Positions 21,960 through 55,557 of a stretch of DNA of 64,000 nucleotides are shown piece after piece. Position 1 is the first letter of the stretch, and every line of letters starts with the position of its first letter. The notes under the pieces were generated by a model that saw only the letters and a program-made list of their open reading frames with translations, did not search any database and had not been told where the DNA came from. Source of the stretch: Salinivirga sp. (GTDB taxonomy: Bacteria; Bacteroidota; Bacteroidia; Bacteroidales; Salinivirgaceae); the NCBI RefSeq assembly GCF_035268865.1, contig NZ_DATFKB010000024.1, positions 967-64,966 on the forward strand, in the 5' to 3' direction. Both the position numbers and the translations under genes were made by a program.

Positions 21960-22631
21960 CTAATCCTTTTTTGCTCCAAATCCGCCAAATGAGAAAGTTA
22001 TATTACCGAAAGGCGCATTGAATGCATCATCTTCAAAATATCGCTTGGTGTTTTCCTGGTCGTCAGCAATGTAAGTTTCTGTGCCAATACCTGTTACAAA
22101 ACGGTACCCGGCGCCGAAACTAATTTTAAACCAGCGTGTCAGATTCATTTCCACTTCTGCCTGTGGGGCTATTACGCCTATAAAATCGTTATGGCGATCA
22201 TTTTCATCGTATTCAAAATCAGAATCGTAGAGTGAAATAGTGCCGAGGCCGAATTTTGAGCTTATACCAAAATGTACCGGATTGTTGGGCATAAAAATAT
22301 AACCCATCCAAAGCCCACCTGAGCCAAATTCAACATTATAATTCACATTGATTTTGTTGCCGTGCTGGTCATAAATTTGTGGAAACTGGTGCTCTGAAGC
22401 CATTCCCATACCATAACCTCCAATAAAAAAGGTATTGTTGAAAATAGCGGCACCGCCACCGCCACTAAATACAGCAAAGTCTCCATCGTAGGTACTGAAT
22501 TGTACAATTGGCGCACCAAAACCGCTAATGCGGTAGTCTTTATTGCTGAAAATGTAGCGCATTTCGTCTTCCTGCGCCTGTAATGTCATGCTTAACAATA
22601 CAGCTAAAACGGTTAGATAAATAGGTTTCAT
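21960..22631 (-). CDS. Secreted / outer-membrane beta-rich hypothetical protein
   Basis: Signal peptide from MKPIY, Gly/aromatic-rich strands. Confidence 0.65.
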   Translation of the reverse strand: MKPIYLTVLAVLLSMTLQAQEDEMRYIFSNKDYRISGFGAPIVQFSTYDGDFAVFSGGGGAAIFNNTFFIGGYGMGMASEHQFPQIYDQHGNKINVNYNVEFGSGGLWMGYIFMPNNPVHFGISSKFGLGTISLYDSDFEYDENDRHNDFIGVIAPQAEVEMNLTRWFKISFGAGYRFVTGIGTETYIADDQENTKRYFEDDAFNAPFGNITFSFGGFGAKKD

Positions 22632-22895
22632 AATTAATGGTTTTGGGTTAAGAAATCTCTGCAAAAATAGTTGAACGCTTGAAACCCACAAGATGGTATT
22701 GCAAGTTTAAACATTAATTAACAGAAGATGCTCAATAGCAGGTTGATGATTTGCCTTTTTAACTCATTTAGCTGATTAATGTTATTCAATCCCGGATTCC
22801 TTTAGAAATTCCGAACCGTGACACTCCCTGCGAGCGGAACCCTTACCTTCAAAGAATTGATTTTCTCAGTTGATCGATTTTAGTTTGTTTTTCGT

Positions 22896-22903
22896 TACAT
22901 TTG
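22896..22903 (+). promoter_or_regulatory. Bacteroidota -7 promoter element upstream of repeat 1
   Basis: TACATTTG matches TAnnTTTG; the -33 element is weak. Confidence 0.4.
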
Positions 22904-22921
22904 TTGTTAGTGTAATTATTT

Positions 22922-22999
22922 CAAATCGACCAACTGGTTTACGAGCTATACGGCTTAACCGAAGAAGAAATACAGATTGTGGAGGCGGGGGTGCAATAG
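22922..22999 (+). repeat. Repeat copy 1: 3' tail of a Type IIG-like RM gene
   Basis: Translates QIDQLVYELYGLTEEEIQIVEAGVQ*. An in-frame TAA at 22913-22915 just upstream means there is no parent ORF. Confidence 0.85.
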
Positions 23000-23090
23000 A
23001 AAGAACCGGACACTGCTGCCGCGCGATTAGCTACGCTGAGCTCCCTACGGTCGGTTGTATCGCGTGGTTACGTGCAATAACCGGAGACCT

Positions 23091-23125
23091 TAATCGGAGC
23101 CCGACTCCGAGTCGGACTCCGATTA
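23091..23125. repeat. REP-like palindrome family B, copy 1
   Basis: TAATCGGAG-C-CCGACTC-C-GAGTCGG-A-CTCCGATTA. Confidence 0.8.
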
Positions 23126-23182
23126 GGCAACGTTGAAGCTGCCCACGACCCATTACCTTTACTTGCAAAAACCGATAGCAAT

Positions 23183-23920
23183 ATGGAAAACAAACGAAAA
23201 TACACACTCGAAAAATGGTACGAAGTAGACGATTCGTACTACGACAACCCCACTGATTATGAAAAGCTGGGTTACCAACAAGGGGATGTCAATATGTTAA
23301 ATTATGACCAATGGTTATACCAGGAAAACTATCTGTTTGATTATAAGGGGCGCATTGTTCGGAAGTTCGATTATCATATCGCCCATTGGTGCGATTATAC
23401 CAATGAACCATTCGATAATGGCGTATCGTTCGTAATGGACGACCATAAAAAAGATTTTCTTGACAGAAAATATGCACTGGTCGACATTTACGGCAACCTG
23501 CTTACCAAATTTTTCGATGATGTGGGCGAAGGTTGGATCGATAGCACCTATATTATGGTTCAAAAAAACGGAAAATGGGGTTATATCGATAAGCGAGGCC
23601 GGCAGGTTACTGACTTCAGGTTTGATGTCCCGGGTATGGACTACGAATGGCTTAATTTGAGCCATAATTATGAAATCGTACGTTTGGAAATGGAACCCGA
23701 AGGTGTTTATAAGTTTGGATTATTTGCTTTTACCGGGGTGTTGGTGTTGGAACCAAAATACAAAAACATTGAAATCAAATCCGATTACCATTGGTTCGAA
23801 AATAATCACGAACGAATAGGAGCAATGCTCAACGATGAAATTATCGTTACAGACTTTGATGATCAAATGTACCAATGGACGCACCGATATGGGTTAAGAA
23901 AAGTTCAAAGAAATCCATAA
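23183..23920 (+). CDS. WG-repeat (KWG) protein
   Basis: VQKNGKWGYIDKRG, YALVDIYGNLL, KFGLFAFTG...PKY; no signal peptide. Confidence 0.75.
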   Translation: MENKRKYTLEKWYEVDDSYYDNPTDYEKLGYQQGDVNMLNYDQWLYQENYLFDYKGRIVRKFDYHIAHWCDYTNEPFDNGVSFVMDDHKKDFLDRKYALVDIYGNLLTKFFDDVGEGWIDSTYIMVQKNGKWGYIDKRGRQVTDFRFDVPGMDYEWLNLSHNYEIVRLEMEPEGVYKFGLFAFTGVLVLEPKYKNIEIKSDYHWFENNHERIGAMLNDEIIVTDFDDQMYQWTHRYGLRKVQRNP

Positions 23921-24017
23921 AAATGAAATTTCGGAAGTAGAGAAGCATTTTTTACATCAAATTGAACACACACAAAAGAAATTAAAGAACAAAAACAAAA
24001 ACGAACAGGACGGTTAT

Positions 24018-24092
24018 ACCGCCCAACTGGTATATGAGCTTTACGGTTTAACGGAAGAAGAAATACAGATTGTGGAGGCAGGGGTACAATAG
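24018..24092 (+). repeat. Repeat copy 2: 3' tail of a Type IIG-like RM gene
   Basis: Translates TAQLVYELYGLTEEEIQIVEAGVQ*. Confidence 0.85.
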
Positions 24093-24104
24093 AAAGCACC
24101 GAAC

Positions 24105-24192
24105 AGCGAGGGCTTCGCCTGGAGCGAAACCCTCGCTTGCAAGTTTATGCGGGGCCGTAATCGGAGATCAGTTTTGAGCCGGCCTTCGGCTA
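24105..24192. repeat. REP-like palindromes A (24105-24137) and degenerate B (24158-24192)
   Basis: AGCGAGGGCTTCGC-CTGGA-GCGAAACCCTCGCT and TAATCGGAGATCAGTTTTGAGCCGGCCTTCGGCTA. Confidence 0.75.
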
Positions 24193-24219
24193 ATTAAAGT
24201 AGAACCATATACCAGATTG

Positions 24220-24265
24220 TTTGGACAGCAAGGCATCTTTTTTGTATATTTGGTTAAAAAACCAA
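24220..24265 (+). promoter_or_regulatory. TA operon promoter with candidate operator
   Basis: TTTG (24220), 21-nt spacer, TATATTTG (24245); inverted repeat TTGGTT-AAAA-AACCAA at 24250-24265. Confidence 0.65.
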
Positions 24266-24507
24266 TGGATATTCAGGCACGAAAAATACAATTTATACAG
24301 GAGTTTCTTAAGTTGAAAAATGAGGATATGATTGCTAAACTTGAAAATCTTTTGCAGCAAGAAAGGCAAAAGCAATACCAAAGCATAAATGAGCCCATGT
24401 CGACTGAAACGTTTAACAGTATGATAGACCGTGCTGAAGATGATTCAAAAAATAGCCGTATAACTTCTGCTGGTGACCTGAAAAATGAAATAGACACATG
24501 GAGCTAA
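24265..24507 (+). CDS. Putative antitoxin (80 aa)
   Basis: MDIQARKIQFIQEFLKL... small protein whose end overlaps the RelE/ParE toxin start. Confidence 0.7.
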   Translation: MDIQARKIQFIQEFLKLKNEDMIAKLENLLQQERQKQYQSINEPMSTETFNSMIDRAEDDSKNSRITSAGDLKNEIDTWS

Positions 24508-24815
24508 AGGTGTTTTGGACAGATACTGCCAGGTATCAATTCGAAGATATTTTCGATTTCCTGAAGTACAAGGCTGGTGTTAACATAGCTAAAAATATTG
24601 TGACCCGAATCATCGATAAGACACTTACGCTGGAAAAACATCCAACTATAGGGCAGATTGAAGAACTATTACAAAACAGGGAGTATGATTACCGGTATTT
24701 AATTGAAGGCAATTATAAAATTATTTACTGGATAGAAAACAACTACATAAAAATTGCTGCAGTTTTCGATTGCAGGCAAAATCCCCATAAAATGCAGCAG
24801 GTTGACAATTATTGA
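24498..24815 (+). CDS. RelE/ParE family toxin
   Basis: V.WTD.A..., L.KHP.IG, YR.LIEGNYKIIY, VFDCRQNP. Confidence 0.88.
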   Translation: MELKVFWTDTARYQFEDIFDFLKYKAGVNIAKNIVTRIIDKTLTLEKHPTIGQIEELLQNREYDYRYLIEGNYKIIYWIENNYIKIAAVFDCRQNPHKMQQVDNY

Positions 24816-24919
24816 TTCATAATTTTTGAGGTAGCCAAAAAATAAATGCCGGGGAATAGCATGAAGTAGACCAAAATCAAAAAAAATTAAATTACAATGT
24901 TAACGGCATTTCCAAAACC

Positions 24920-24997
24920 CAAATCGACCAACTGGTATACTAACTTTACGGCTTAACGGAAGAGGAGATACTGGTTGTGGAGGCGGGTGTGCAATAA
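24920..24997 (+). repeat. Repeat copy 3: 3' tail of a Type IIG-like RM gene, with internal stop
   Basis: Translates QIDQLVY*LYGLTEEEILVVEAGVQ*. Confidence 0.85.
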
Positions 24998-25074
24998 TCG
25001 GAGACCGACTTGGAGTCGGCCTCCGATTGGCATTATCGAATAGCGAGGGCTTCACTTAGCGCGAAACCCTCGCT
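24995..25074. repeat. REP-like palindromes B (24995-25029) and A (25042-25074)
   Basis: TAATCGGAGACCGACTTGGAGTCGGCCTCCGATTG and AGCGAGGGCTTCACTTAGCGCGAAACCCTCGCT. Confidence 0.8.
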
Positions 25075-25278
25075 TGCAAGTTTTAATGGAGCCCTTAGGA
25101 GGCTGTTAAAAAAGTCTTTTATAAAAGCTTTACTGAAAATAAGGTTTTGTCCCAAATCTTAATCACTACCTGGGATTCATGGAAGCGGAATTTCAAAAAC
25201 GTATTTTATTTTTATTCAAAATATTTACATTCTGCTTGCACCAATAGGCCTTCCCTGAGTTTGCAGCATAGCAGCAAG

Positions 25279-26775
25279 CTACTCCACCCGCAATATCTTG
25301 TATTGCTTTTGCTCAACCAGGTAATGAAAACTGGTATCGTTGAGTAGGGCAAGCATGGAGCGGGGTTCGAGTGCCAGTACCAATTTATTGGCTGCTAACT
25401 GAGTGGTGGGAACCTCAATATAAGCCTTGTCTGCAGGTACGCTCGTTTTCATATCTGCATTTACTTTTACATTCAGAAAATCCCAACCTTCGTTGCATGT
25501 GGCTGTATCTACTTTTTGAATGGTATATTGTGTGATTTTTTCCGTTTCGCCGGGTTCGTAATCTTCATATTCAATGTGATGCTTTTGCAGCCATGCATTG
25601 AGCTTGAAGTCATCTTTCGGTATCAGGTAAGCCTTTGGCCGATCAACGGTTTCTGTTGATTTTCTTACAGAATGATATTCCTTGACCATAAAAATGGTGT
25701 CTTTATCTGTTTTTATAGACCGCAAGGGATAGGCCAGTTTCTGTTTTCCTTTAACATGGGCAAAGCGTATACCCACCTTTTCTCCTGGTTTTGCATTTTT
25801 TAGCTCGCGCCTTGCTTTTGTAACGATGTTCGATGCACGGGTGGCATTCTGGTAAAACCAGGCAATAAGGGATTCAAGCAATACCAACTGGCTTTTGGTG
25901 CGTCGTTCAAGGTTGTGGTTGGTCGTTTTGCCGTTTTTACCCTCTATGATCATGGGAAAGCTGTGCATAATACCAAAACTTTGTCGTCCATCATCAATGT
26001 GGGTTGTGCTGTGGCGCAAACGCCCACCTTCGCTGTGAATTTGGCCCAGTGTGTATTCAAAAAAGCTGTATCCGGCATCTTCTACCGCATTTTTAGCGTA
26101 AGGGAGTACCTCATCATAAAACAGATCGAACAACGAATGATTTATATTAGGATTGGTAGGGCCGCCAAGCTGTACGTCGAAATTTTTAATGTAGCCAAAT
26201 TCTTCCCACGACGACCGGTATGGGTAATACTCGTGCACATCAATGGTGATTTCAGGTTTGTATTTATGAAATACCTTATGTACTATACGGTTCGCTTTTG
26301 TGGCCAGTACAAGATGATCGCGGTTAAGGTCGAAATCACCGGCTGTGCGCCGTTCGTCATGATCGTTTCCCCAGGGGTTTACCTGTGGCATAATCAGAAG
26401 GTTTATGCTATCGAGTACGGCCATGTATTTTTTATTGGCAAAACCGGCGATTAGTGCCAGTGCAGCCTCTTTACCCGATGGTTCATTGCCATGTTGCTGT
26501 GCAATGATGAATACGGTTGGCTTGTATTGTTTCGTTTGCTTTTGAATTTTTACTAAAGGAATTGCCATTGCTGAACTGGTGTGTCCGGCATTTTTTACTG
26601 TAATATAGCCTGAAGCAGTGTCGACCTTTTGCAAAAAAGTCATTAGTGCTTTATGGGTTGTAACTTTTGAGAAATTGTTTTGCTGAATGGGATAAGTTAT
26701 CGATTGCTTACCTGTTTTATCGCACCCCCAAAAAAGTAATGTTGCCGCAATAATAGGGAAAAGAAGCGTTTTCAT
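25279..26775 (-). CDS. M14 zinc carboxypeptidase family lipoprotein
   Basis: Lipobox WGC, HGNE, NPWG..RR, DLNRDH, IDVHE. Confidence 0.85.
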   Translation of the reverse strand: MKTLLFPIIAATLLFWGCDKTGKQSITYPIQQNNFSKVTTHKALMTFLQKVDTASGYITVKNAGHTSSAMAIPLVKIQKQTKQYKPTVFIIAQQHGNEPSGKEAALALIAGFANKKYMAVLDSINLLIMPQVNPWGNDHDERRTAGDFDLNRDHLVLATKANRIVHKVFHKYKPEITIDVHEYYPYRSSWEEFGYIKNFDVQLGGPTNPNINHSLFDLFYDEVLPYAKNAVEDAGYSFFEYTLGQIHSEGGRLRHSTTHIDDGRQSFGIMHSFPMIIEGKNGKTTNHNLERRTKSQLVLLESLIAWFYQNATRASNIVTKARRELKNAKPGEKVGIRFAHVKGKQKLAYPLRSIKTDKDTIFMVKEYHSVRKSTETVDRPKAYLIPKDDFKLNAWLQKHHIEYEDYEPGETEKITQYTIQKVDTATCNEGWDFLNVKVNADMKTSVPADKAYIEVPTTQLAANKLVLALEPRSMLALLNDTSFHYLVEQKQYKILRVE

Positions 26776-54259: not shown

Positions 54260-54694
54260 ATGAATGAAAAATCTGAAAGTAAGTATGTTAAAAGAACGCA
54301 AAAGGATTATTCTTACTCCTTTAAATTAGCAGTTGTCCAAGAGTTCGAATCTGGACAAATAAGCAAGGGAGAGTTAAAGCGTAAATATGGAATCCAAGGA
54401 GATTCCACCATAAGGAATTGGTTAGAAAAATATGGTACCTTTGATTGGGCTAATAAAACTCCAGGTACTATGCCAAAAACACCAGAACAAAAACTTTTGG
54501 AACTTGAACAGAAAGTACGCCTATTAGAAAAGCAGAAGAAAGAGTTGGAGCAACAAGTTGAGAAATCCGATAAAAAGGCCATACTTTTTGATATGATGAT
54601 CGATATAGCAGAAAAAGAGTTTAACATACCGATCAGAAAAAAATCCTTACCCGGGCAATCGAAACCTACCAAGAAGAATACAAAGAAGCAATAG
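54260..54694 (+). CDS. IS3 OrfA (HTH + coiled coil)
   Basis: YS.SFKL.VV, KYGI.G.STIR.W, leucine-zipper-like segment. Confidence 0.88.
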   Translation: MNEKSESKYVKRTQKDYSYSFKLAVVQEFESGQISKGELKRKYGIQGDSTIRNWLEKYGTFDWANKTPGTMPKTPEQKLLELEQKVRLLEKQKKELEQQVEKSDKKAILFDMMIDIAEKEFNIPIRKKSLPGQSKPTKKNTKKQ

Positions 54695-55557
54695 CTTCTA
54701 CCTGTAGATTACTCGGGGTAAATAGGCAGGTTTATTACCGGGCCAAAAGGAAAGAAAAGAGCAGAAGGTTAGTAGCTCAACAAGTTGTTGAATTAGTTAC
54801 TCAAGTTAGAGTTCAAATGCCCAAACTCGGAACCAGAAAGCTATATCATCTCCTTCGTCCACAACTTAAGGGTTTAGGTGTTGGCAGAGATCGATTATTT
54901 CAAATATTAAAAGCAAATTACATGTTGATAAAACCCCAAAGACAATACCATATTACAACAGACTCACATCATCATTTTCGAAAGCACAAAAACCTTGTTG
55001 AAGGTTTATATATTCACCGACCAGAGCAAGTCTGGGTGTCAGATATAACATATATTTGTACAAGAAAAAATCCAATGTATTTATTTTTAGTAACGGATGC
55101 ATATTCAAAAAAAATAATGGGATATACCGTTTCTGAAAGTCTAGCTTCAAATGGAGCTTTATCAGCTCTTGAGTCGGCCTTGAAAAATAGAAATTATAAG
55201 GATAAAGTATTGATACATCATTCTGATAGAGGTCTTCAGTATTGTTGTCATGAATATCAAGATATGCTTAAAAAGCATAATATTAGATGTAGCATGACTG
55301 AAAAATATGACCCTTATCAAAATGCAATTGCTGAAAGAGTTAATGGTATATTAAAACATGAATTCATCAATGGCATAAGTATTATCGATAAAGAGCTTTG
55401 GAGGCTCTTTATCGATAACTCGATTGGTATCTATAATAGTCAAAGACCTCATTATTCCTGTTATATGCTAACTCCAGATCAGATGCACAAACAAAATGAA
55501 ATTCAAATGAGAACATATAAAAAAAGTGAGAATGAAATTAATCCCATTCTCACTTAA
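54637..55557 (+). CDS. IS3 OrfB DDE transposase, likely fused to OrfA by -1 frameshift
   Basis: A7 run at 54637-54643; the -1 frame is open through CRLLGVNRQVYYR into WVSDITY / HSDRG.QY / NAIAER. Confidence 0.85.
   Translation, partial: KKILTRAIETYQEEYKEAIASTCRLLGVNRQVYYRAKRKEKSRRLVAQQVVELVTQVRVQMPKLGTRKLYHLLRPQLKGLGVGRDRLFQILKANYMLIKPQRQYHITTDSHHHFRKHKNLVEGLYIHRPEQVWVSDITYICTRKNPMYLFLVTDAYSKKIMGYTVSESLASNGALSALESALKNRNYKDKVLIHHSDRGLQYCCHEYQDMLKKHNIRCSMTEKYDPYQNAIAERVNGILKHEFINGISIIDKELWRLFIDNSIGIYNSQRPHYSCYMLTPDQMHKQNEIQMRTYKKSENEINPILT

Follow-up and report, generated by a model that had tools for sequence, protein, structure and literature searches.

Integron cassette arrays and CALINs have a repeat-gene-repeat look, carry TA cargo and vary most in their first slot. 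Foreign DNA can also enter a genome by homology-facilitated illegitimate recombination, reportedly described by de Vries and Wackernagel in 2002. In the sections of PMC4437187 that deal with this process, there is one homologous anchor and a microhomology join at the opposite end, and foreign DNA replaces resident DNA. For rhs C-terminal displacement, the portions of Jackson et al. 2009 (PMC2935791) drawn on here present a model of circle pop-out and pop-in, and the corresponding portions of Furuta et al. 2010 (PMC2853133) describe the insertion of restriction-modification (RM) genes with long target duplication as well as Type IIG TRD allelic exchange. The insertion of a REP inside a RAYT gene is known for subclass 2.4, according to a section of PMC6006769.

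Here we describe a site in Salinivirga sp., within a 64,000-nucleotide stretch of DNA (the window), at which three repeats, hereafter tails, are followed by variable cargo. By sequence, each tail comprises the final ~25 codons of a Type IIG RM gene of the Eco57I/TaqI_C kind. As in integrons and CALINs, the site has a repeat-gene-repeat look, TA cargo and variation mostly in slot 1; unlike them, it has no IntI, no folding attC (the repeat is RM coding sequence) and no whole-cassette exchange, and it includes antisense cargo. It is similar to homology-facilitated illegitimate recombination in that one end has a homologous anchor and resident DNA gives way to foreign DNA; microhomology at the far end varies from clear to absent among the junctions, and the anchor here is a short, gene-less RM relic that is common to many genomes and repeatedly reused at one site. 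As far as the cited part of PMC2935791 describes them, rhs arrays likewise line up conserved gene fragments that vary in length, need no integrase and are pooled across strains; however, rhs varies a protein tip behind an intact gene, whereas here separate downstream genes vary, the parent is gone and swaps are partial. No intact Type IIG parent was found in the assembly that holds the window (G000), the likely donor subfamily is absent from a complete relative (G003), and no circles were seen in contigs. The RM loci treated in the cited part of PMC2853133 also have long direct repeats without an integrase, and a conserved end behind a variable TRD; there, it is the RM gene that inserts, with host target DNA forming the repeat, whereas here the repeat is RM-derived and the cargo unrelated. 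Finally, hairpins A and B at our site are REP-type repeats of G003 RAYT genes, including an in-gene insertion as in subclass 2.4 (the same section of PMC6006769), although REPs account for the hairpins and not for the tails or the cargo.

Tails and cargo in the window

The features of the site, with positions in the window, are the following.

22730-22920, no strand: spacer left of tail 1; non-native, as the empty sites of G004 and G005 align only up to about 22730
22896-22903: TAnnTTTG box, lying in the spacer left of tail 1
22920-22999, + strand: tail 1, orphan last ~25 codons and stop, by likeness those of a Type IIG RM gene; anchors the hypervariable slot on the left
23015-23125, + strand: hairpin block 1, palindrome C with an inserted repeat, then REP A (23091-23125); differs among strains
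23183-23920, + strand: cargo 1, WG-repeat-like protein of 245 aa (PF14903, E 1e-4, below cut-off)
23898-24008, + strand: RhuM-family 3' stub, earlier cargo; gene intact in G003
24020-24092, + strand: tail 2, Type IIG tail
24105-24191, + strand: hairpin block 2, REP B and a degenerate REP A
24265-24507, + strand: cargo 2, 80-aa putative antitoxin; overlaps the ParE gene
24498-24815, + strand: cargo 2, ParE toxin (PF05016, above cut-off)
24914-24997, + strand: tail 3, with an internal stop; identical allele type in slot 1 of contig L102
24995-25083, + strand: hairpin block 3, REP A then REP B, in the order seen behind the G004 Type IIG gene
25158-25192, + strand: STAS-domain gene, 3' stub from earlier cargo; L102 has the intact gene behind a HATPase gene

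An earlier, sequence-only reading of this DNA had described three same-orientation repeats with hairpins behind them, and both are present. The direct repeats, 86 nt each, lie at 22927, 24020 and 24925, copy 2 starting ~5 nt later than the other copies, and their pairwise identity is 79-88%. The hairpins behind the tails fold better than shuffled sequences (z -2.8, -3.3 and -5.0), and the tail regions, folded on the + strand, do not (z +1.6, +0.4 and -0.3). The translations give the C-terminal peptide that the same reading had ascribed to Type IIG RM proteins, with an internal stop in copy 3. This identification is well supported by a G004 protein with Eco57I and TaqI_C domains (PF07669 and PF12950), whose end is 92% identical to the tail; its gene has the A and B hairpins behind it, as at the window tails, and the binning of its contig is uncertain because the contig is short and its first gene looks unrelated. 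Two bases at the tail 5' edge (window:22929-22930 and equivalents) differ among alleles in slots 1 and 2, and they sit exactly at the start of tail homology.

Across the order, the tail profile matches 114 of 301 genomes, and the matches mostly end long ORFs, among the 150 of 346 that were listed. Viral contigs gave 0 matches to the tail pattern, and Rfam gave 0 within 22600-25300. The spacer at 22730-22920 is possibly a former RM promoter; its likeness to RM upstream regions was not above that of shuffles. The TAnnTTTG element reported before the first repeat exists, but the motif occurs at chance frequency (82 seen versus 80.6 expected).

The PF14903 match, though below cut-off, agrees with the description of the first cargo as a WG-repeat gene. 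Its last four codons and stop are supplied by the RhuM stub, and the seven WG homologues all have their last residue at the point where the window gene passes into this stub; therefore, the window gene has lost its stop only. Of the antitoxin and RelE/ParE toxin proposed as second cargo, the toxin holds; the 80-aa ORF matched no family and is labelled antitoxin by position only. The RhuM and STAS stubs are additional features, absent from the earlier description. Its suggestion that the TA module stabilizes the array is weakened by G003, in which the ParE gene carries a stop codon and the array is still present. PADLOC returned no match for the WG, TA, HATPase, STAS or DUF cargo and matched RhuM to the candidate PDC-S05. 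Elsewhere in the window, two ORFs (54260-55557) form what we take to be an IS3-family transposase pair look-alike.

Hairpins and RAYT genes

Hairpins A and B are REP-type repeats of RAYT genes. In G003, REP A adjoins such genes, and REP B is found both within and next to them, in G001 as well as in G003; two of the G003 genes with A/B hairpins next to or within them are intact 215-aa copies. The HUH nuclease that the earlier reading had suggested looking for is present in this sense, as a RAYT that matches the hairpins elsewhere in G003. Hairpin C has no RAYT match. In G000 (86% complete), the matching RAYT subfamily was not found, the best match (E 2e-10) being to other types. Lone REPs stand at ordinary gene ends elsewhere in G003, and few such sites have an orthologous counterpart in G000.

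Two RAYT loci in G003 (L288 and L300, at G003:C1:1.21 Mb and 1.13 Mb) include two genes in tandem at one site, and the genes directly downstream are presumably cas1-like. Two Type IIG-like RM genes (L109, G004:C73, and L040, G025:C100) have a Y1_Tnp (RAYT-like) stretch in frame within the methyltransferase region. A dispersed repeat of several hundred bases adjoins a REP A variant on many G000 contigs (L291, L292; C62, C10, C47, C190 and others).

The site across the genus

The complete single-contig relative G003 has an identical layout with three tails. Three other species of the genus (G002, G004 and G005) have an empty site of 120-140 bp between the same flanking genes, and other genes occupy this gap in G001. 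All four tails of G000 are orphans. The full RM gene, which had been expected elsewhere in the genome, was not recovered: no Type IIG gene body was found in the 86% complete assembly, and the likely donor subfamily is absent from the complete G003, whose one Type IIG gene belongs to another subfamily and lies 1.1 Mb from the array. Of five genomes of the genus, one (G004) has DUF7149, which marks the N-terminal end of the likely donor subfamily.

The integron integrase (TIGR02249) stayed below cut-off in both genomes searched, one of them complete, and the tyrosine recombinase nearest to the array in G003 is ~777 kb away. As regards DNA uptake, a ComEC-family gene is present in both genomes, and likewise in 10 of 14 controls. 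In G003, ~10 copies of a paired tyrosine-recombinase unit lie within 200 kb (G003:C1:109000-303000).

Alleles and junctions

The window, G003 and four metagenome contigs (L100-L103) together carry five loads behind tail 1.

Window: WG gene, running into the last 110 bp of RhuM
G003: intact RhuM
L103: 5' part of RhuM, antisense DUF2283/DUF4258 pair, short RhuM stub
L101 and L102: HATPase-STAS, then the L103-type DUF2283/DUF4258 pair and RhuM stub
L100: 5' part of RhuM, shorter than that of L103, plus other DNA

All four loci returned by the metagenome scan are this one site, and none holds a full-length donor gene with this tail. In L100, L101 and L103, the flanking genes share 99.4-100% identity with those of the window. 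Cargo varies among strains at exactly this site, in support of the earlier reading. The exchange does not take the proposed form of gain or loss of whole units: swaps are partial, with stubs in four of the five slot-1 alleles, and no allele has a different tail count. New DNA begins at the tail and ends raggedly, leaving 3' stubs of older cargo (RhuM and STAS). The alleles diverge in or directly behind tail 1 and its hairpins, the exception being the insertion of the DUF2283/DUF4258 pair, which sits antisense within RhuM with neither end at a tail. Co-orientation of cargo, put forward as a trait of the array, fails in other alleles, where some cargo is antisense, and hairpin blocks are reshuffled among alleles.

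In public runs, the WG unit was recovered in three of four and the HATPase unit in all four, and the WG/RhuM, STAS/DUF and DUF/stub junctions are spanned by contigs in independent runs. Beyond tail 2, L102 carries an antisense ECF sigma pair; the ECF unit occurs in three of four public runs, visibly behind a tail in one, and no contig of these runs links it to the array. Contig depths suggest that several alleles coexist in one sample at about half the flank depth; depth is no measure of cell share, and we give it no weight as evidence.

Among five far junctions, microhomology was clear at one, ambiguous or likely at two and absent at two. At the RhuM/DUF junction, the match of the RhuM continuation to the recipient is equalled or surpassed by only 2 of 4000 random pairs. 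The WG/RhuM junction has a 7-of-8 match to both parents, a signal that may be partly diverged stub, and the ambiguous microhomology at the DUF/RhuM-stub junction may have the same source. The STAS-stub and L100 junctions showed no microhomology.

Ten distinct in-frame alleles from 12 tails (one frameshifted tail was dropped) show 13 synonymous changes out of 23, the other 10 being of other kinds, versus 22% synonymous sites (p 0.0004), a result carrying some bias because the metagenome search pattern favored conserved tails. The alleles are mosaic, with 20 of 171 site pairs failing the four-gamete test. Between the window and G003, tail 2 has 13 differences over 66 nt, against a divergence of 2% in the TA region beside it. 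Moreover, slot 1 of L102 holds the stop-bearing tail-3 allele, the A-B hairpins and HATPase-STAS, and slot 3 of the window retains the STAS stub only. This one contig, the only one on which the left flank is joined to the stop-bearing tail, suggests that cargo may have moved from slot to slot through the tail.

Tail loci and possible donors elsewhere

In L127, the best WG homologue immediately follows an RM-like ORF of 1112 aa with the tail at its end; the other of the two close WG loci is not tail-linked, and the WG protein was found in 0 of 300 genomes of the order. Tail linkage was seen for 0 of the 29 best RhuM loci, 1 of 28 ParE loci, 0 of 3 HATPase loci and 0 of 1 ECF locus, and a comparison of the tables by hand places at least four of 149 listed RhuM genes no more than 1.5 kb behind a tail that was also listed. 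Among 37 tail loci, six have orphan tails behind a full gene, in arrays of up to three behind full Type IIG genes, and four have lost the body of the RM gene, so that its start is fused to the tail or lies next to it; the 37 were hand-picked for having tails, and these counts cannot show preferential tail retention. The 5' ends of tails range over tens of codons elsewhere and are clustered within ~12 nt here.

A second orphan tail in G000 (C163:34070; L025, also L044 and L303) belongs to another Type IIG subfamily. It shares its upstream gene in G000, G002 and G001, with different cargo behind; G000 equals G002 up to the tail end and diverges behind it. The cargo at these tails is an 838-aa gene, which we assume to be DUF262-like, versus a toxin/HTH/SecB-like trio. 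At another locus (L081, G069:C86), a full Type IIG gene is followed by three orphan tails separating an ApeA-HEPN gene and other genes. At L266/L296 (G050:C156), a Type IIG gene has been cut to its first eight codons and fused to the tail, behind which lie a 240-aa gene, Cas13a (PADLOC E 1e-187) and a three-repeat CRISPR remnant.

Discussion

What we observed at this site is the identity of the tails, an assembly in which the RM body is missing, five loads in slot 1, far junctions that are ragged, cargo stubs and a mosaic, mostly synonymous variation of the tails. We suggest, with a probability of roughly 60%, that recombination here needs no integrase and uses the tail as its homology anchor, the far end being joined by microhomology. 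The differing loads are likely to result from foreign DNA that recombines in by way of the shared end piece, no integrase being required. An RM-linked tail array may have entered the gap and then lost its RM body, after which the tails would have anchored incoming DNA, with illegitimate joins downstream. Donors could have been DNA behind Type IIG genes of other bacteria as well as other slots in sister strains. Host recombination would supply the enzyme, and the direction of each swap event is likewise one that we infer. The chemistry is probably that of known recombination. In favor of this reading are the five loads between nearly identical flanks, the WG/RhuM and RhuM/DUF junctions, the synonymous and mosaic changes of the tails, the tail-3 allele in slot 1 of L102, the WG homologue behind an RM-like ORF in L127, the divergence behind the C163 tail and the four loci with a deleted RM body. 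Against it are the two junctions with no microhomology, the DUF2283/DUF4258 pair with neither end at a tail, cargo families that elsewhere mostly lack tails, the constant tail count, the lack of a full-length donor gene among the four metagenome loci and the single contig behind the join of left flank and stop-bearing tail.

The main rival, which we consider rather unlikely, is that a RAYT assists: TnpA-REP would nick single-stranded DNA at the REP hairpins and start or catalyze the swaps, and the tail would be a passenger or a secondary anchor. It would fit the A and B hairpins flanking or inside G003 RAYT genes, two of them intact, the reshuffled hairpin blocks and, in the cited part of PMC3333891, the cleavage and recombination of BIMEs by E. 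coli TnpA-REP in vitro. However, RM-gene tail arrays in G069, G151, G245, G059 and G252 lack such hairpins, as judged by eye, and so does the variable C163 tail; furthermore, the matching RAYT subfamily was not found in the 86% complete G000, and in G003 lone REPs occur at ordinary gene ends. Still less probable to us is rhs-like homologous recombination between tails, in which circles pop out and in, whole units move and the stubs are later deletions. Although this would account for extra tails (a step of which no case was observed here), for the ragged tail 5' ends and for the up to three orphans in arrays behind full genes, no whole unit is gained or lost among the five alleles. Excised circles joined at the repeat, which the sequence-only reading had proposed to look for in reads, are required by no joint in six distinct runs, a check made on contigs, which could miss circles; the backward joints in public runs match known hairpin variants or the TA unit.

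That reading's interpretation as a site-specific, integron-like array with the tail as att site and a recombinase acting in trans, was rejected and now seems very improbable. The clustering of tail 5' ends within ~12 nt and the two variable edge bases would be in keeping with it, but there is no integron integrase in either of the two genomes, no recombinase near the array (~777 kb in G003) and no whole-unit exchange; exchange is partial and ragged, some cargo is antisense, the tails do not fold (+ strand only), and tail 5' ends elsewhere spread over tens of codons. We attach as little weight to the idea that the alleles are chimeras assembled through the repeats. Contigs do break at tail 1 in all four runs examined for the WG unit, and the join of tail 2 to ECF in L102 is unbridged in the runs; however, the single-contig G003 genome has the same layout, and contigs from independent runs bridge the WG/RhuM, STAS/DUF and DUF/stub junctions, all three of which are in unique sequence.

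We found no published description of RM-tail arrays in the non-subscription literature, surveyed at the level of listings and the openings of abstracts. What is new here is an RM-less site with population-level alleles and junction anatomy. Under the anchor reading, the new element would be a reusable RM-derived anchor, working without its gene, together with these five alleles and their junctions. It would be tempting to go further and view the Type IIG 3' end with its REP hairpins as a portable docking site that outlives the RM gene, a population gene-exchange platform driven by RAYT nicking and an integrase-free counterpart of the integron that taps genes behind RM genes across Bacteroidales; we hold this broader idea to be speculative and doubtful.

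It is an open question how defence-type and TA genes come to accumulate at fixed spots when no integrase is involved. This site offers a concrete, testable route: its 75-nt anchor occurs in 114 of the 301 genomes searched in the order, and there are five natural alleles whose junctions can be read. If the anchor reading is true, the anchor still works after the loss of the RM gene, and the DNA behind RM tails would be a place to mine mobile defence genes, such as the ApeA-HEPN gene and the Cas13a locus found there.
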